Assembly (NCBI GenBank): GCA_963840505.1
Contig: CAWIZB010000018.1
Coordinates: forward strand, 73,292 to 137,291
Reading direction: 5' to 3'
Origin: an uncultured Actinomycetota bacterium
Lineage (GTDB): Bacteria > Actinomycetota > Actinomycetes > Propionibacteriales > Propionibacteriaceae
DNA length: 64,000 bases
In this document: in pieces, positions 34,290-40,686 of the stretch
How the letters are laid out: the number at the start of each line of letters is the position of its first letter
How positions within the stretch are numbered: the first letter of the stretch is position 1
Program-made: the position numbers and the translations under genes
Notes under the pieces: model-generated
Told to the model about the DNA's origin: nothing
The model's database searches: none
What the model saw: the letters and a program-made list of their open reading frames with translations, nothing else

Positions 34290-34397
34290 CCTCGAAATAC
34301 AGATTTCGCCAACGACCCAGGTGCCAGTGTCTGCGGCCCTAGTGTTTACGTCGGCAGCTTGCCGGGTACCTCAAAGGCTGGAGAGGAGGTCCTGCCC

Positions 34398-34478
34398 ATG
34401 AACCGGGGAATTATCGGAACCATTATCGGTGTCCTTGTCATCATCATTTTGGTGATAGTGATTCTTCAGCTCACCTGA
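34398..34478 (+). CDS. 26-aa single-TM small protein MNRGIIGTIIGVLVIIILVIVILQLT
   Basis: Strong RBS (GAGAGGAGG) 8 nt upstream, ATG to TGA, fully hydrophobic core, downstream GC hairpin; below the ORF-track cutoff. Confidence 0.7.
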   Translation: MNRGIIGTIIGVLVIIILVIVILQLT

Positions 34479-34569: not shown

Positions 34570-35520
34570 CTAAGCCTGTGCTTCGCGGCGCTCGGGGTGT
34601 TGTGCGGCTAGGTACTGGTAGGTCGACGTCAGATCCTGACTGCTCAGGCCGGCTCGATCCAACAGCTGAAAGAGTTCCTGCACGTTTGCCAGCAGCCGCG
34701 CCGAAGTACCTGTTCGCCAGGCTTGTTGAGCCGCGACTTCGAGCGGCGCCAGTGAAGCCCCAGCGGGTAGATCGGGTTGGAAGTCCCGATTGAGCAGTTT
34801 GGCTCGGGCCGATCCAAGCACCTGGCTGCCCGCGGGCGATAGCTCCCAGCTGTGCAGAACCCGGGATAGGTCGAGGCCGGCACGTTCGGCGATGACAGCC
34901 GCCTCGCTGAGCGCCATGGCGGTAGCCGCGATGATGTACTGCTCGCAAGCGTTGGCAATCTGGGCGCTGCCCACACCACCGACGCGTACGCAGGTTCCGA
35001 GCAACTCCAGTACGGGCAACGCGTCCCGGTAAAGGCCTGGCGTGGCGCCGATCACGATGGACAGGTCGCCTCGGGCGGCCGTTACGTGGGTTCCGCTCAG
35101 CGGAGCGTCGACCACCCGGAGCAGACCAGCGGTCTTATCGGCCAGTTCACCGGCCAGATTGCGTAGGTCATCTGGAGTGGAGATCGCTCCCATCACAAGG
35201 ATCGTGGGACTGTGGACGCCAGCCTGCAGCCCGCTCGAACCGCTGAGATCGCCCTCGAGATCCTCCAATTTCTCAAGCAGCACGAGGACGTATTCGCTGC
35301 GCGCAGCGAGATCGGCAGGACTCGCAGCGCGGTGGGCGCCCAGCTGCTGAAGCTCAGCGAGCAGGTCAGGGTTCCGACCGTACGTCGAAATGTGCGTCGC
35401 TGCCGGCAGCGCGCGCAACAGCCGCTGCAGGACCGGCTCGGCCAGGAATCCGTGCCCAAGCACCCCGACTGAGCGCGGATAGATTGGGTCGCGCGCTCTC
35501 CCCGTCGGCACGCTTGTCAC
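34570..35520 (-). CDS. Beta-hydroxyacid dehydrogenase (GarR/MmsB-like) homolog with degenerate motifs
   Basis: DAPLSG, LSIVIG, ALSEA..AERAGLD fold markers; Rossmann and catalytic motifs altered. Confidence 0.75.
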   Translation of the reverse strand: MTSVPTGRARDPIYPRSVGVLGHGFLAEPVLQRLLRALPAATHISTYGRNPDLLAELQQLGAHRAASPADLAARSEYVLVLLEKLEDLEGDLSGSSGLQAGVHSPTILVMGAISTPDDLRNLAGELADKTAGLLRVVDAPLSGTHVTAARGDLSIVIGATPGLYRDALPVLELLGTCVRVGGVGSAQIANACEQYIIAATAMALSEAAVIAERAGLDLSRVLHSWELSPAGSQVLGSARAKLLNRDFQPDLPAGASLAPLEVAAQQAWRTGTSARLLANVQELFQLLDRAGLSSQDLTSTYQYLAAQHPERREAQA

Positions 35521-35627
35521 TCTATCGAAGGCGCATAGAGACTCTCCCGATGCGCAAGGTGGTCTGATCACGGGACCGCAACGATGTTGCGCATCCTGTG
35601 CGCTTCAATCGCTGCCGAAATGCCGAG

Positions 35628-37028
35628 CTAGTTGGCGCCGCGGTTCAGCACGACCTGGACAAGCCGGCGCAACTCGGGCGTGAGGTCCTGCTCTGGCACC
35701 GTGAAGCGCCAGTCGCCATATTCAACGGTGTAGACAAACCGATCTGGAGCCGGCCGTGTGGCCGTAATTGGCTGCAGGCCGACACTCATCAGTAGGTGCC
35801 GGACCTCCGGCCCTTCCGGATCAGAGTTGAGATCCAATTGCCCGATCTTGGTGGTGCCGGCAAAGCCTCCGCTGCGACACACCGCGACGGTCGCGGGCTC
35901 GTCGGGGCCCGCCGGCGAGGAGCCGGTCGGGGGCTCGGATGAACCAGCGGACTCGGTGATGCCAGCGCGTGCGTCCTGAGCCACCGCGAGATCAACACCC
36001 GCAGCGAGCAGGCCGACCTCGACCCACGCGGCCCAAACTTTCTCCGCGACCGACGGGTCGTTCATGAAAAGGCGACGTGCTGAGGTGACCGTAGCCTGTG
36101 CGAACGACTCAAAGCCGGCTTGCGCACTCAGTTGACCATTGACCAGCGTGTCATACCAAACCTGGCCAGCCTTCTCCCAGCTGTGCCCACCAATCTCCAG
36201 CGCTGCCAGGGCGAAGGCCCGGTTGGGAATTCCTGAGTTGATATGGACACCGCCGTTGTCCGTATCGGTTACGACATAGTCCGACATTGAGCCCACCTGC
36301 AAATCCCTGCCGATTTGGGGGTCGTCGTACGCCGTTCCGGGTTCTCGCATTGATCGGAGCGCTCTGGCGTTGATCCCCGGCATGAAAAGTCCCTCCCCGA
36401 TGAGCCAGTCAGCCTGGGCCGCAGTCTGGCCGAGCACGTGCTGTTTGGCTATCGAGGCAAAAACGTCGCTAATGCTCTCGTTCAGGGCGCCTGGCTGGTC
36501 TTGATAAGCCAATCCGACCGTGAACTGGGTGACACCATGCGTGTACTCATGCGCCATCACATCCATTGGCTTGGTGAAGCGGTCGAAGATCTGCCCATCT
36601 CCATCGCCAAAGACCAGCTGAGTTCCGTCCCAGAATGCGTTGTCGTAATCACGCCCGTAGTGGACGGTGATGGAGACCGTGCCGCCACCTCCGTCAATCG
36701 ACTGCCGGCCGAACTGGCTGTCGAACATATCCCAGACTTGACCGGATGACTCGAACGCCTCGTCAACCGCTGGATCACCGACCGGGGGGTCGCCGTTGCT
36801 CCGGGCAACCTCCCCGGGCAGCAACTCCGTGTTGTTGGCAGTGTGCACCACCCGCTTCTTGGTGCCAGGCAGGCGTGGAGCAGCCATCTGATCCGCTGGC
36901 GACTCCCGTCGGGCCCGCAGACGGTCATCGACCTGCAGTGTTTCCCTGCCGGATGCGGACGCCTGACGAGTACCGCCCCACAGGGCGACGCGCTGCAGCA
37001 GGTAGGGCGGAACAAAGGTGCAGCACAT
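35628..37028 (-). CDS. Protealysin-like M4 metalloprotease fused to a C-terminal emfourin-like inhibitor domain
   Basis: Propeptide FVPPYLL, HEYTH, GALNESISD, DNGGVHINSGIPN; Pro/Ser linker; then RSGGFAG...PDRFVY.V. Confidence 0.88.
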   Translation of the reverse strand: MCCTFVPPYLLQRVALWGGTRQASASGRETLQVDDRLRARRESPADQMAAPRLPGTKKRVVHTANNTELLPGEVARSNGDPPVGDPAVDEAFESSGQVWDMFDSQFGRQSIDGGGGTVSITVHYGRDYDNAFWDGTQLVFGDGDGQIFDRFTKPMDVMAHEYTHGVTQFTVGLAYQDQPGALNESISDVFASIAKQHVLGQTAAQADWLIGEGLFMPGINARALRSMREPGTAYDDPQIGRDLQVGSMSDYVVTDTDNGGVHINSGIPNRAFALAALEIGGHSWEKAGQVWYDTLVNGQLSAQAGFESFAQATVTSARRLFMNDPSVAEKVWAAWVEVGLLAAGVDLAVAQDARAGITESAGSSEPPTGSSPAGPDEPATVAVCRSGGFAGTTKIGQLDLNSDPEGPEVRHLLMSVGLQPITATRPAPDRFVYTVEYGDWRFTVPEQDLTPELRRLVQVVLNRGAN

Positions 37029-37419
37029 GACGCCCTCCTCAACATGGTCTCCGACAAGATGGCACAAAAATGCAGCGCACTTAGGTCACCTGATGGTTTG
37101 ATGAATTCGTTGCGACCGCCTGCAGCATGCTCACAGGCAGGTTACATTCGGTTTTGCGACCATCGGGGGAGAATTTTTGAGCAGGGTTCTTGACGGCATG
37201 CCCCCGCACGTTTCAGGCTGACTTCGGAATGGGTCACCTCGCGCGTGCGACGGCTACCTGTTCTGTGGGTTCGATTGACGGCGCACAATCGGTGACGGCC
37301 ACCATCCGATGGGGCCGATTCTGTGGCCAACTGGGGCCATGGACCGAGGGCGTGCGTGCCTGAGTCGCACTCACTGGCGACGCGTTGGAAAGTGCGCGAA
37401 GCACCTAACGCGATTTTGG

Positions 37420-37442
37420 CATGTCCACTTTAGGACATGTCC
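37420..37442. promoter_or_regulatory. Palindromic operator CATGTCC-ACTTTA-GGACATG(TCC)
   Basis: Perfect 7-bp inverted repeat plus an overlapping GGACATGTCC palindrome, ~20 bp upstream of a predicted -35. Confidence 0.55.
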
Positions 37443-37463
37443 GCTTCCTGCTGCCCTTTTCGC

Positions 37464-37492
37464 GTGACTTCGACATAGGCCATGCATAGCGT
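37464..37492 (+). promoter_or_regulatory. Predicted sigma-70 promoter of the repeat-peptide gene
   Basis: GTGACT-N17-TAGCGT. Confidence 0.4.
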
Positions 37493-37565
37493 CCATCTTG
37501 ACAAGCTCAGGTTCTCGCCCGGCCGGCTGCGCCGGCACGGCGGGACGTCAAGAAGGGAAACTCAA

Positions 37566-37702
37566 ATGCAGAGCATCAATCGTGGACATAGCCTTCGCGG
37601 ACATAGCCTTCGGGGACACAGTCTTCGGGGCACAGTCTTCGCGGACACAGTCTTCGGGGGCACAGTCTTCGCGGACATAGCCTTCGGGGGCACAGCCTCT
37701 AA
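37566..37702 (+). CDS. Small repeat peptide MQSINR(GHSLR)x7-GHSL (45 aa after restoring one G at 37627-37630)
   Basis: RBS aaggga, ATG 37566, eight 15-nt units varying only at synonymous positions in this frame, in-frame TAA at 37700. Confidence 0.75.
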
Positions 37703-37746
37703 GCCAAACGCAGCGCACATTCTCTAAGCCAAACGCAGCGCACATT
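37697..37746 (+). repeat. 25-bp perfect tandem duplication ctctaagccaaacgcagcgcacatt x2
   Basis: Seen directly; includes the peptide stop codon. Confidence 0.9.
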
Positions 37747-37827
37747 TCTGCTTCTGCTCTGAACCGCGTGCCAAATCGCGGTCGAAAGGCTAGTGAAATC
37801 GCGTCCAAAGTCAGATAGTGTTGTCAT

Positions 37828-38010
37828 AGACAAGGCAAGCACCAGATCTTCCGCAAGGAAGCCGGGATACCTGACGTTCCCGGTGGTCGAGATGCGTACT
37901 GAGCGTGGCTCGACCAGCACAGCCCGTGTGGAACTTTTCCCCGAGGTTCCGCTCGGAGTTCCTCCCCCTGGGCGACGCCCGCGGTTCAGATTCGGACCGC
38001 GGGCGTGGCT
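37828..38010 (+). ncRNA. Structured small RNA candidate (possibly Ms1-like)
   Basis: Promoter GTGAAA-N17-TAGTGT (37793-37821); five consecutive hairpins including a GCAA tetraloop; 11-13 bp terminal stem at 37975-38006; no RBS-led ORF. Confidence 0.55.
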
Positions 38011-38017
38011 TTGGGAT

Positions 38018-39034
38018 TTAGCTTCCATGCCCGATCCGGGTCTGAGGCTGATAATTCAGGTATGCAACGGATCTGCCGCCGCGTAAACCGTCTGACCTGA
38101 CGAGTGCTGCGCCTAGCTGCAGCCGCGTCGACACCCCCAGCTCATCCATAAGTTCAGAGATCCAGCGCCGGACCGAGCGCACGTTGATGTTCAACGTATT
38201 CGCTATTGCAGAGTCGGTTGAGCCGGTCATCAGCATTGAGATCAACATCTGGCGACGTGGATCGTTTTCACTGTTGACGGAGGTCATGATCGGCACCGCC
38301 GCCTCCCACACCGCCTCGAAGAGCCACTGCAGTGCTTCGACCAGCAGGGCATGGCGCACGACCGAGGCCCTGAGTTCATGCCCTGGGGCGTACGAACGCA
38401 TCGATGGGATGAGGGCAGTATGAGAATCGATGATGATCAACTTCATCGGAACCGGTGACGTACGTGACTGTTCGCCCTTCTTGGCGAAGAGACTCAGTTC
38501 GGTAAGTCGATCGGCGTCGAAGCCTGGGTCGTAGACGCATCGCATCATCACGTTTCGCTCCAGCGCCTGCCACTCCGGCTCGACGCTGAGAGCCTCTTCG
38601 GTGATGGTCGACCTGATCTGCGCGTACGGCGGCTTGTCGAAGAAGCAGATCTCCCGACGGGCGGAATCCATCAGGTCTCGGTGTACGGCGACTATCGACT
38701 CGCGTCCGACAATGGTCTTGACGTCGTCCTCGGTCGCCCCAGCGGCCGCCAGGTGACTCTCCAGCGACTCGGCCGCCACACTCGCCAACTCGATCTCGGA
38801 CAATCGCTGGGCCTTGAGCTGGTTGACCACATCGAGTAAGGGCAACGCCCGCCAATGTCCCAATGAGGAATCCGTTGCCAGCCCGAGCTTTCGCAACTCC
38901 TCGAGGGTCTCAGCCACACACTCAGAGGTTGATGACGTGAGCCGCGCCAGCTCAGCCACCGACGCCGAAGCCAGTGGCCCGAGCGCGACATATATGGCCT
39001 CCGCTTCGGCACTGATGCCTAGCGGCTGAAGCAT
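38018..39034 (-). CDS. TrmB N-terminal HTH + sensor + LuxR-type C-terminal HTH regulator
   Basis: LGISAEAEAIYVAL..VAELA; PMKLIIID..ALIP; LMTGSTDSAIANTLNINVRSVRRWISELMDELG..TRLQLG. Confidence 0.88.
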   Translation of the reverse strand: MLQPLGISAEAEAIYVALGPLASASVAELARLTSSTSECVAETLEELRKLGLATDSSLGHWRALPLLDVVNQLKAQRLSEIELASVAAESLESHLAAAGATEDDVKTIVGRESIVAVHRDLMDSARREICFFDKPPYAQIRSTITEEALSVEPEWQALERNVMMRCVYDPGFDADRLTELSLFAKKGEQSRTSPVPMKLIIIDSHTALIPSMRSYAPGHELRASVVRHALLVEALQWLFEAVWEAAVPIMTSVNSENDPRRQMLISMLMTGSTDSAIANTLNINVRSVRRWISELMDELGVSTRLQLGAALVRSDGLRGGRSVAYLNYQPQTRIGHGS

Positions 39035-39183
39035 TCTTTCCCTCCAGCGCGACGTTCTGACAGGGGCTATCGCCCGACGCGCCCATGAGCGTAAGCCGAT
39101 ACGCTGAGCCAACGGCACAGCGACCCCGTTCGCTGATCGATCGTCTCACAACCACCCGAACGGCCCAAAGGAGAGTTTCCAGG

Positions 39184-40686
39184 ATGGCTGAACTTGCTCA
39201 GATCGGTGTCACAGGCCTCGCGGTCATGGGCCGCAACCTCGCACGCAACTTCGCCAGGCATGGTCATCGCGTGGCGATCCACAATCGCAGCTACGCCAAG
39301 ACTGAGTCGCTGATCGCCGAGGCCGGGTCAGAGGGGACGTTCATTCCGTCCGAATCCATGCCCGATTTCGTCGCCTCACTGGAGCGTCCGCGTCGCGTAT
39401 TAATCATGGTGAAAGCCGGTGCCGGGACTGATGCGGTGATCGATGAACTGACTCCACTGATGGAACCCGGCGACATCTTGATCGACGCGGGCAATGCGCA
39501 TTTCCCCGACACCATCCGCCGGGAGCGGAAGCTGGCCGAGATTGGCCTGCACTTTGTGGGCACCGGTGTCTCCGGCGGTGAGGAGGGCGCGCTCAACGGC
39601 CCATCGATCATGCCAGGCGGTTCGCGCGAATCGTACGAGTCGCTGGGTCCCTTGCTGGAAAGCATTGCCGCGAAGGTCGACGGCGTCCCTTGCTGCACTT
39701 ATGTCGGTCCGGACGGGGCCGGTCATTTCGTCAAGATGGTTCACAACGGCATCGAGTACGCCGACATGCAGTTGATCGCCGAGGCGTACGACTTGATCAA
39801 GCAGGCCACCGGCGCGAGTGCGGCCGAGATCGGCGAGATCTTCAAGACCTGGAACGAGGGCGACCTGGAGTCGTTCCTGATCGAGATCACCGCCGAGGTG
39901 CTCGGCCAGGTCGATGCCGAGACGGGGAACGCGTTCGTCGACGTCGTCCTGGACCAGGCCGAGCAGAAGGGCACTGGCCGCTGGACGGTGCAGAACGCTC
40001 TCGACCTCGGCGTGCCGATCACCGGCATCGCGGAAGCGACCTTCGCGCGTGCGCTGTCCGGATCGGTGCCGCAACGTGAGGCGGCGCACCGGAAACTGGC
40101 TGCCAGCACCGGGGAGTGGAAGGTCGGCGATCGTGACGCGTTCGTCGAGGACGTGCGGCAGGCGCTGTACGCGTCGAAGGTCGTCGCCTACTCCCAGGGG
40201 TTCGACCAGATCGCGGCCGCCAGCGCGGAGTTCGGCTGGGACATCGACCGCGGCGCTATGGCCCGCATCTGGCGGGGCGGCTGCATCATTCGGGCCAGGT
40301 TCCTGAACCGGATCACCGAGGCGTACGAGCGCGAGGGTGATCTTCCCCTGTTGCTGGCCGACGACTACTTCGTCGACGCCGTCGGCACCTGCCTGGCCGC
40401 GTGGCGACGAGTGGTTGCCGGTGCGGCTCAGAACGGCATCCCCATTCCGGCGTTTTCCTCGTCCCTGGCCTACTACGACGGGATCCGGGCCGAGCGGCTG
40501 CCCGCCGCGCTGATCCAGGCCCAGCGGGACTTCTTCGGCGCGCACACCTACCGCCGCGTCGACAAGGACGGCTCCTTCCACACCGAGTGGAGCGCCGACC
40601 GCACCGAGCGTCAGGTCGGGGAAGCCTTCAAGCAGGATGTGCCCGCAGCCAAGGAGTCCGAGAAGGCGCCCGCCACCTCGGCATGA
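39184..40686 (+). CDS. gndA: NADP-dependent 6-phosphogluconate dehydrogenase
   Basis: IGVTGLAVMGRNLA, HFVKMVHNGIEY, QAQRDFFGAHTY. Confidence 0.97.
   Translation: MAELAQIGVTGLAVMGRNLARNFARHGHRVAIHNRSYAKTESLIAEAGSEGTFIPSESMPDFVASLERPRRVLIMVKAGAGTDAVIDELTPLMEPGDILIDAGNAHFPDTIRRERKLAEIGLHFVGTGVSGGEEGALNGPSIMPGGSRESYESLGPLLESIAAKVDGVPCCTYVGPDGAGHFVKMVHNGIEYADMQLIAEAYDLIKQATGASAAEIGEIFKTWNEGDLESFLIEITAEVLGQVDAETGNAFVDVVLDQAEQKGTGRWTVQNALDLGVPITGIAEATFARALSGSVPQREAAHRKLAASTGEWKVGDRDAFVEDVRQALYASKVVAYSQGFDQIAAASAEFGWDIDRGAMARIWRGGCIIRARFLNRITEAYEREGDLPLLLADDYFVDAVGTCLAAWRRVVAGAAQNGIPIPAFSSSLAYYDGIRAERLPAALIQAQRDFFGAHTYRRVDKDGSFHTEWSADRTERQVGEAFKQDVPAAKESEKAPATSA

Follow-up and report, generated by a model that had tools for sequence, protein, structure and literature searches.

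We analysed a 64,000-nucleotide stretch of an uncultured Propionibacteriaceae genome (contig CAWIZB010000018.1; the window), in which a small gene for a tandem-repeat peptide lies beside the gene for a regulator that is predicted to join a TrmB-type winged helix–turn–helix (HTH), a phospholipase D (PLD)-like domain and a LuxR-type HTH. In the Microlunatus group of soil actinobacteria, peptide and regulator vary together between strains that otherwise differ very little, which is the signature of a peptide-signal/receptor pair not yet described in this phylum. We are fairly confident that the two genes form a functionally coupled pair; a wider proposal, which on sequence comparison and structure modelling we judge might equally well be right or wrong, is that they constitute a polymorphic signal–receptor cassette that works like the RRNPP systems but is not homologous to them. 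Homologous loci were collected through the regulator (80 from genomes and 46 from metagenomes), and about 110 loci of the Microlunatus/Friedmanniella clade encode the small protein. The relatives carry the names Propionibacteriaceae, Microlunatus or Friedmanniella, most loci come from metagenome-assembled genomes (MAGs), and comparisons between loci are not phylogenetically independent. Across the genus the gene order is gnd, regulator, (small RNA (sRNA)), peptide, operator and M4–emfourin protease. The slot of the peptide gene is bordered by the 3′ end of the regulator gene on one side and by the protease on the other, and peptide and regulator genes are on opposite strands. An earlier sequence-only reading had grouped five of these parts (protease–inhibitor fusion, palindromic operator, repeat peptide, structured RNA and regulator) into a 3.4-kb module; all five were found where it had placed them, and comparison of the loci bears out their synteny across the genus (Table 1).

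Co-variation of peptide and regulator

Two conspecific contigs from ENA (L149 and L150) are 96–100% identical to the window over 24.5–47 kb except at 37300–39200, and their protease is 98% identical to that of the window. The peptide open reading frame (ORF) of these contigs, MRGHTLSK...(GHTLK)n, cannot be aligned with the MQSINR(GHSLR)n of the window. Identity to the window is about 83% in the sRNA and 69–83% in the regulator gene, but 98–99% in gnd. The two regulator alleles remain about 88% identical as proteins despite a DNA identity of 74–79%, and the residues that changed between them number 6 of 62 in the winged HTH, 2 of 38 in the coiled coil, 27 of 150 in the PLD-like domain and 0 of 64 in the LuxR HTH.

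Divergence of the regulator was then set against that of its flanks in locus pairs whose flanks are at least 88% identical. In pairs that share a tetrapeptide, regulator divergence equals that of the flanks (median excess −0.1), whereas in pairs with different tetrapeptides it exceeds it by 3–18 points (median 13.5; Mann–Whitney p = 0.004, n = 6 and 6, the pairs not being independent). In three pairs the divergence is concentrated in two islands, the N-terminal/PLD part of the regulator and the peptide ORF. In L055/L065 (91–95%) and L066/L086 (84–99%) the stretch that separates the islands, made up of the LuxR-coding part and the sRNA, is at or near background, and the control pair L046/L065, whose peptides are the same, gives a flat profile. 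The nearest neighbours of the PLD domain share peptide type, whereas those of the winged HTH do not. At residue 130, GxSL loci carry Phe (36 of 37) and GxTL loci carry Ala or Gly (27 of 27), and F130 was reached separately by GNSL (nested in the ANGL group) and by L073 (nested in the GHTL group). Column-wise mutual information ranks columns 130 and 180 at the top and places 9 of the top 12 columns in the PLD domain; its domain means are alike (0.22–0.27), and the signal is therefore dominated by phylogeny. Co-variation of regulator and peptide between strains, independent of the flanks, is what would be predicted if, as the sequence-only reading had proposed, the peptide feeds back on the regulator.

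The peptide could instead be the effector itself (that is, a secreted antimicrobial, adhesive or metal-binding product) under diversifying selection, with a regulator that answers another cue and hitchhikes, an account that we consider unlikely. Signal peptides in 43 of 65 homologs (the family statistics refer to 65 motif-bearing ORFs from genome loci) and the fast turnover of copy number and spacers would suit such a product, as would the Cu(II) binding expected of a free N-terminal Gly/Ala-His in His-type units, although Asn- and Arg-type units cannot bind metal. The higher identity of the regulator alleles as protein than as DNA likewise indicates purifying selection on an old allele. Divergence is asymmetric, however: towards the protease it ends close to the promoter of the peptide gene, with an identity of about 91% regained at the operator and of at least 91% from about 37300, whereas in the other direction it extends over the regulator. 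The two islands with near-background sequence between them, and the sorting of the PLD domain by peptide type, also speak for a coupled pair rather than for an effector with a passenger.

Table 1. Features of the peptide–regulator locus and related elements (positions in the window unless stated otherwise)
Feature	Position	Strand	Basis or detail
M4–emfourin fusion, 466 aa	ORF 35628–37067; called from ATG 37028 (35628..37028)	-	Pfam, public homologs
Second inverted repeat, ACGCGTT-N20-AACGCG	37380..37413	.	kept in most loci that keep the operator
Operator-like site, CATGTCC-ACTTTA-GGACATG-TCC	37420..37442	.	conserved position, genus-restricted motif
Putative peptide-gene promoter	37464..37492	+	-35 GTGACT, 17-nt spacer, -10 TAGCGT (TAnnnT type)
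Repeat-peptide gene	37550..37702	+	sequence, six-frame scan, intact homologous ORFs in relatives
25-nt direct repeat, 2.3 copies	37690..37746	+	Tandem Repeats Finder
Stand-alone sRNA	37794..38016	+	covariation; RNA ~190 nt at ~37828–38016
TrmB/PLD/LuxR regulator, 337 aa	38018..39031	-	structure model, fold search, profile versus PDB
Regulator: putative LuxR/GerE HTH	residues 255–318; 38078–38269	-	four helices in model at 258–317
Regulator: PLD-like putative sensor	residues 101–250; 38282–38731	-	degenerate HKD motif PMK-x4-D-x6-PSMR
Regulator: coiled-coil helix	residues 63–100	-	model helix 65–96
Regulator: winged HTH	residues 1–62; 38846–39031	-	
Noncoding unit, ~430 nt, locus L231	C25:31826–32330 (outside the window)		operator motif at head; -35 TCGACA, -10 TAATTT

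A family of tetrapeptide-repeat pro-peptides

Judged by its conservation, the small ORF is a conserved coding gene that ends in lineage-specific tetrapeptide units (x-[H/N/R]-[small]-[hydrophobic]), and a family of such TETRAPEPTIDE-repeat pro-peptides, as read from the aligned loci, occupies the slot across the clade. In genome and metagenome loci alike the slot ORF sits behind a strong ribosome-binding site (RBS), and the ORFs were chosen by this heuristic of an RBS plus the motif. The protein ends exactly in a unit ([GAVS][HNRT][GSTN][LVIYW]) in 61 of the 65 homologs, and 55 carry 2–20 copies of the unit; where an N-terminal signal peptide is present, the first unit follows immediately after a small-x-small site in 21 of 43 cases. 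Examples of C-termini are ...AAPAHA/AHGV-RSNTVIAR-AHGV, ...TAASA/GRGL-SQA-GRGL and ...(ANGL)5, each directly before the stop. Unit types include GHSL, GHTL, AHTL, AHNL, GHGL, AHGV and SHTL with His, GRGV, GRGL, GRGI, GRGY, ARGV and STGI with Arg or Thr, and ANSW, ANGL, GNSL, GNTL, VNGV, VNGI, VNGL, VNSL, VNSI and ANSV with Asn. His-dependent metal binding was rejected as a general function, given that many lineages carry Asn or Arg at position 2. A search of the peptides against Pfam and NCBIfam matched no family.

The window gene has the RBS AAGAAGGGAA (37550–37559), an ATG at 37566 and a TAA at 37700–37702, and its eight 15-nt units, GHSL(R), span 37584–37699. Its frame is interrupted at a run of four G (37627–37630; five G at the other unit junctions), so that MQSINR(GHSLR)3... 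is read in the ATG frame and (GHSLR)4GHSL, ending at the stop, in another (3 + 5 GHSL units); with the frame restored, the product reads MQSINR(GHSLR)7GHSL. The other frameshifted alleles (L055, L056 and L066) all belong to ‘MFD’ MAGs, have several small indels each and, by their contig names, are probably long-read assemblies, whereas 46 alleles from short-read Joint Genome Institute (JGI) metagenomes are intact (the screen admitted intact ORFs only). Because the other frameshifts all come from MFD MAGs and the short-read alleles are intact, the frameshift in the window is probably a homopolymer or assembly error. The GHSLR-repeat gene named in the sequence-only reading is thus present, and coding in relatives, but that reading had overlooked that the window ORF is frameshifted.

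It is hardly credible that the repeats are non-coding DNA (for example, iterons or other binding sites, or a hypervariable tandem repeat). The tandem array does occur only once in the genome, its copy number varies and the window copy is out of frame. Among close relatives, however, the RBS and ATG are invariant and intact peptides are encoded (MQSLTHR(GHTLxR)nGHTL and M(Q)STR(GHSL[N/S]R)nGHSL), and the five positions that vary among the eight window units are all third codon positions and all synonymous. The unit is 5 or 6 codons long among relatives (a 15- or 18-nt period), which points to constraint on the protein and not on a DNA repeat, and relatives encode the motif with other codons, periods and spacers, with the stop always directly after a unit. 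The iteron reading was rejected on this protein-level conservation.

Copy number and spacers change fast between samples (for example, 7 versus 8 units in samples of one lineage, L146/L147). A tandem second peptide gene was seen as two full ORFs in genome G018 (L005/L018) and as an upstream copy in L049 and L053, and a one-unit mini-ORF, MNRGHTL followed by a stop, lies about 25 nt past the peptide stop in L146–L148. In L038 (4279–4404, minus strand; genome G008) the corresponding spacer holds a different repeat ORF (MGPARSMGLEVSMAPARSMGRGVSMAPARSMG...). The 25-nt direct repeat in the window copies the last codons and stop of the peptide gene and is without counterpart in relatives; it looks like a slippage or duplication scar.

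The hydrophobic leader is kept in the basal members L047, L067, L069 and L070 and was lost in the window’s subclade; the leaderless alleles may use another exporter or act inside the producer. The sequence-only reading had favoured an intracellular or regulatory role over a classical RiPP (a peptide made on ribosomes and then modified post-translationally). Its premise stood, in that neither a modifying enzyme nor an exporter is encoded among the neighbours, which comprise gnd, small membrane ORFs, a HIBADH-like dehydrogenase and a USP-domain protein, but the intracellular role did not hold up as a generalization, given the signal peptides of most homologs.

The regulator, its candidate targets and a proposed mechanism

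An AlphaFold model of the regulator from a 41-sequence alignment reached a pLDDT (predicted local distance difference test score) of 79 and replaced an 8-sequence model that was too poor (pLDDT 61). Foldseek placed TrmBL2 first (5bpd, 1e-12), followed by phospholipase D, TrmB (3qph, 4e-8; 2f5t, 4e-6) and other PLD-fold proteins. The 41-sequence profile matched GerE (1fse, 1.4e-4), the C-terminal domain of DosR (0.03) and, weakly, TrmBL2 (E 0.25) in PDB. Among Pfam models, GerE scored 18.5 bits, under its 23.5 cutoff, DUF7436 matched weakly too, and no TrmB model matched even at E ≤ 10. Model and fold search thus favour the architecture given in the sequence-only reading, a TrmB/LuxR regulator with a central sensor domain. 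By our reading of the alignment, the residues of the degenerate HKD motif (PMK197-x4-D202-x6-PS210MR) are invariant; the start of the protein, MLQPLGIS, is conserved, and the tail (residues 319–337; 38018–38077) is hypervariable, with homologs of 321–420 aa in total and NGAxGSSxTP repeats in the tail of L101/L042. Kribbella-like genomes (for example, G037, G064, G102 and G131) hold 5–12 full-length relatives each (E 1e-26 to 1e-48), and several of these matches contain in-frame stop codons.

Such an architecture would also suit a TrmB-type sensor of a sugar or sugar phosphate that controls the divergent gnd, the peptide gene being an unrelated neighbour. The divergent gnd–regulator pair is syntenic in all loci, the TrmB-like fold keeps a conserved HKD-derived pocket, and paralogs elsewhere stand without a peptide. 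We nevertheless find this reading rather improbable: gnd lies outside the divergent block (98–99% identity versus 69–83% for the regulator), no operator motif lies between gnd and the regulator and only two motif sites occur in the genome, and the regulator allele follows the peptide type.

The palindromic element of the sequence-only reading proved to be conserved at a fixed distance upstream of the peptide promoter. It is present in a single copy in the 4.55-Mb genome (64.5% G+C). Of 68 loci, 62 carry its family consensus, TGTCC-N2-TT-N3-GACATG(T)CC, in which the inner half-site varies but the outer TGTCC and ATGTCC do not. The centre lies about 138 nt upstream of the peptide ATG and about 68 nt upstream of the predicted transcription start, a position typical of activators, and the window site ends 21 nt upstream of the putative −35. 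Both promoter hexamer blocks (GTGACT and TAnnnT) are conserved across relatives; promoters were inferred from conservation alone because a scan of 37000–38100 with E. coli-type promoter and terminator models found nothing. The neighbouring inverted repeat could, from its sequence, serve as another operator or form a hairpin in the RNA of the divergent transcript.

The operator pattern occurs 1–7 times per genome in 35 of 41 genomes of the genus, where the reversed control occurs in none, and a scan of 109 genomes that represent 20 further genera of the order yielded no occurrence. The regulator ortholog is likewise confined to the genus, which favours the tie between regulator and operator put forward in the sequence-only reading. 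In G008, in which the regulator is only about 45% identical, the genome is without the operator motif and the slot without a recognizable peptide gene. The recognition helix of the LuxR domain is nearly invariant across the clade, and the DosR box also has GGGAC/GTCCC half-sites. The proposed regulator–operator link consists of correlations of this kind.

The sole other strong operator match in the genome (GATGTCCGCTTTTTGACATGTCC, 31.8 bits) lies on another contig (C25:31828), at the head of a unit that, starting with the motif, is conserved in at least five other genomes of the genus and ends in a GC-rich hairpin plus TTTT. No convincing ORF was found in this unit, and no Rfam family at E ≤ 1; it is possibly a second target RNA of the regulator, judging by its motif and conservation.

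The cassette itself physically contains a small RNA, preceded by a promoter-like GTGAAA-N16-TAGTGT (37794–37821) and folding into a 5′ CUUCC/GGAAG hairpin, a 17-bp terminal stem and C-rich unpaired stretches (UUUCCCCGAGG and UCCUCCCCCU). Covariation among 33 relatives bears out the structured RNA of the sequence-only reading: pairing holds in 95% of alignment cells, compensatory changes occur in 19 of the 44 pairs, and the covariation score reaches 0.268, versus 0.150 for shuffles and 0.05–0.08 for slid controls. The sRNA was found in about half of the clade (model R1). An Rfam cmscan of 35000–39500 at E ≤ 1 gave 0 matches, 6C RNA included, and pairing of the sRNA with the RBS region of the peptide mRNA was no better than that of shuffles in 13 species (z −1.6 to +1.5), by a crude test.

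Assuming that peptide and regulator are indeed signal and receptor, proteases would free tetrapeptides (GHSL here) from the pro-peptide, and the tetrapeptide would bind the PLD-like domain of the regulator, in which the C-terminal carboxylate may be held by the conserved remnant of the HKD pocket (K197, D202 and S210), with specificity perhaps set by variable residues (for example, 130, 139–142, 165, 168 and 180). Once liganded, the regulator would use its invariant LuxR-type HTH to bind the TGTCC...GACATGTCC site and would control the peptide gene, giving autoinduction, together with at least one other target, the ~430-nt noncoding unit on C25. A more far-reaching version, which we put forward only tentatively and consider rather doubtful, is that this would be the first peptide-pheromone system of Actinomycetota, with tandem tetrapeptides, a PLD-fold sensor in a regulator that has two DNA-binding domains, within-species pherotypes and noncoding RNA effectors controlled via a genus-specific operator, similar to agr/RNAIII but with a one-component receptor.

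Several points weigh against a signal–receptor pair. The two-island pattern appears in just three or four comparisons, which perhaps reflect two old allele classes, and co-variation of adjacent genes can come from linkage, although the two islands argue against linkage. Contrasts at residue 130 are too few for significance (4 of 4; then 3 same, 0 opposite and 1 unchanged), one GHSL locus carries a GHTL-type regulator, and the PLD-like domain as a whole shows good conservation. Sugars are the usual ligands of the TrmB family. No repeat peptide was found in 20 paralog neighbourhoods in Kribbella-like and other genomes, and the peptide link is therefore specific to the ortholog of this genus. The window’s subclade is without a signal peptide for export, the frame of the window’s own peptide copy is broken, and the scheme as it stands names neither a processing protease nor an importer.

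Known systems and neighbouring genes

To our knowledge, peptide signals that pass between cells and are read by cytoplasmic receptors have been described almost exclusively in Firmicutes and in phages of Firmicutes; butyrolactones and similar small molecules are regarded as the signals of Actinobacteria. The locus resembles the RRNPP systems of Firmicutes and phages (Rap–Phr, NprR–NprX, PlcR–PapR, PrgX and AimR–AimP) in placing a small gene for a candidate pro-peptide beside the gene for a cytoplasmic HTH regulator. Signal peptides occur in most of the pro-peptides, the active part would be a short stretch at the C-terminus, and between closely related strains the peptide has diversified in step with the proposed receptor. 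The x-R-G-x unit types recall Phr and AimP peptides, and multi-copy Phr precursors are known. In contrast to RRNPP receptors, the regulator is modelled as winged HTH, coiled coil, PLD-like domain and LuxR HTH without tetratricopeptide repeats (TPR), and the 50 listed best Foldseek matches of the model include no TPR protein. Other differences are a unit of four residues with up to 20 repeats, an Actinomycetota host and the leaderless peptides of the window’s subclade. With comQXP of Bacillus and agrBDCA plus RNAIII of Staphylococcus the locus shares a hyper-divergent signal–receptor block in a near-identical background and, with agr P2/P3, a putative regulator site common to the signal gene and a separate noncoding RNA unit; it differs in having a one-component regulator and no modifying enzyme, histidine kinase or response regulator. 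TrmB and TrmBL2 (archaeal sugar-responsive regulators and chromatin protein) resemble the regulator in their N-terminal winged HTH, long dimerization helix and PLD-like first effector subdomain, but in the regulator a putative LuxR/GerE HTH replaces the C-terminal sugar-binding barrel and the ligand is inferred to be a peptide, not a sugar. The sRNA recalls 6C RNA of Actinobacteria (Rfam RF01066) in being small and stand-alone, in its unpaired C-rich stretches and in its strong hairpin at the terminus, and differs from it in lacking an Rfam match and in its restriction to part of one genus. The cassette would thus assemble a peptide signal and a cytoplasmic receptor from unrelated parts, none of which appears homologous to those of RRNPP, comQXP or agr, and full-text literature searches found nothing describing this combination.

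If true, this would extend the known range of peptide sensing and, through a repurposed PLD/HKD pocket, its structural basis. It would also provide receptor alleles matched to more than 20 natural tetrapeptide specificities, a series in which to study how specificity evolves, as well as very small orthogonal ligand–regulator–operator sets for synthetic biology. The proposal is directly testable, given that synthesis of the ligands is trivial and that several cultured type strains carry the locus; among these, the predicted tetrapeptide is VNGI for M. ginsengisoli, VNSI for M. parietis, GRGY for both M. flavus and M. spumicola, and GRGV for M. lacustris.

As read from the locus comparisons, the M4–emfourin protease and gnd (divergent from the regulator, ATG at 39184) are conserved neighbours outside the co-varying unit. 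Pfam agrees with the sequence-only reading on the identity of the fusion: Peptidase_M4 (5e-28, 98.8 bits), Peptidase_M4_C (1.3e-46, 159 bits) and Emfourin (39.8 bits, cutoff 27) all score above their cutoffs, with the protease domains at ~36012–36770 and emfourin at ~35649–35876. The translation shows HEYTH and NESISD and begins with a short propeptide (MCCTFVPPYLL...) without a signal peptide, in which we take PPYLL to be the propeptide motif of the protealysin-like protease (PLP) literature. The best homologs are all M4 proteins (120 of 120); the majority have the three domains together, and NCBI gives some of them the name ‘protealysin inhibitor emfourin’.

The sequence-only reading had placed this protease at the centre, with the M4 domain cutting before Leu to release LRGHS-type peptides; the peptide might also be its substrate, a decoy or an activator that displaces emfourin. 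Thermolysin-type (family M4) proteases have a P1′ preference to which the small-residue/hydrophobic junction of every unit is suited, and protease and peptide gene are conserved neighbours in divergent orientation around a shared control region. Moreover, protealysin is intracellular (PMC9505478), as a peptide that is leaderless in the window’s subclade might be, whereas most homologous peptides appear to be exported and the protease has no signal peptide. We think a protease-centred function quite improbable, because the protease does not co-vary with the peptide, being 98% identical between strains with different peptides. Peptide and regulator also persist where no protealysin-like gene was found (for example, L099/G172 and L067/G178): the protease is missing from loci L067, L077, L078, L092, L093, L098, L099, L105 and L106, and 4 of 10 genomes of such loci yielded no protealysin-like gene, these being MAGs that may be incomplete. 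Outside the clade, M4–emfourin occurs without an adjacent peptide, and in other families of the order (L039 and L045) neither the regulator nor a convincing peptide accompanies it. The LRGHS register also conflicts with the unit boundaries, which define GHSL: the first unit often comes right after a signal-peptidase site, and the last stops precisely at the C-terminus.

Like the protealysin–emfourin operon of Serratia proteamaculans (PMC9505478), the fusion pairs an M4 protease that has a short propeptide but lacks a signal peptide with an inhibitor of the emfourin family (I104). It differs from that operon, in which the intracellular protease and emfourin are separate genes, in being one fused polypeptide, a form common in the clade’s public assemblies. 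Between the protease start and the operator, close relatives conserve 37068–37400 well, CCTGCAGCATGCTCACAGGCAGG and TTGACGGCATGCCGTCGCACGTTTCAGGCTGAC included, and distant relatives do so in part (74%); the region may be a protease leader or promoter, or another small transcript. Farther off, a small hydrophobic ORF (34359–34478, plus strand) with the core MNRGIIGTIIGVLVIIILVIVILQLT is also found near the locus in L092 (MNRGLIGVIIGVLVIIILVIVIMRLV), and L077 has an ORF with a similar C-terminus; the window ORF probably encodes a conserved single-pass membrane peptide.

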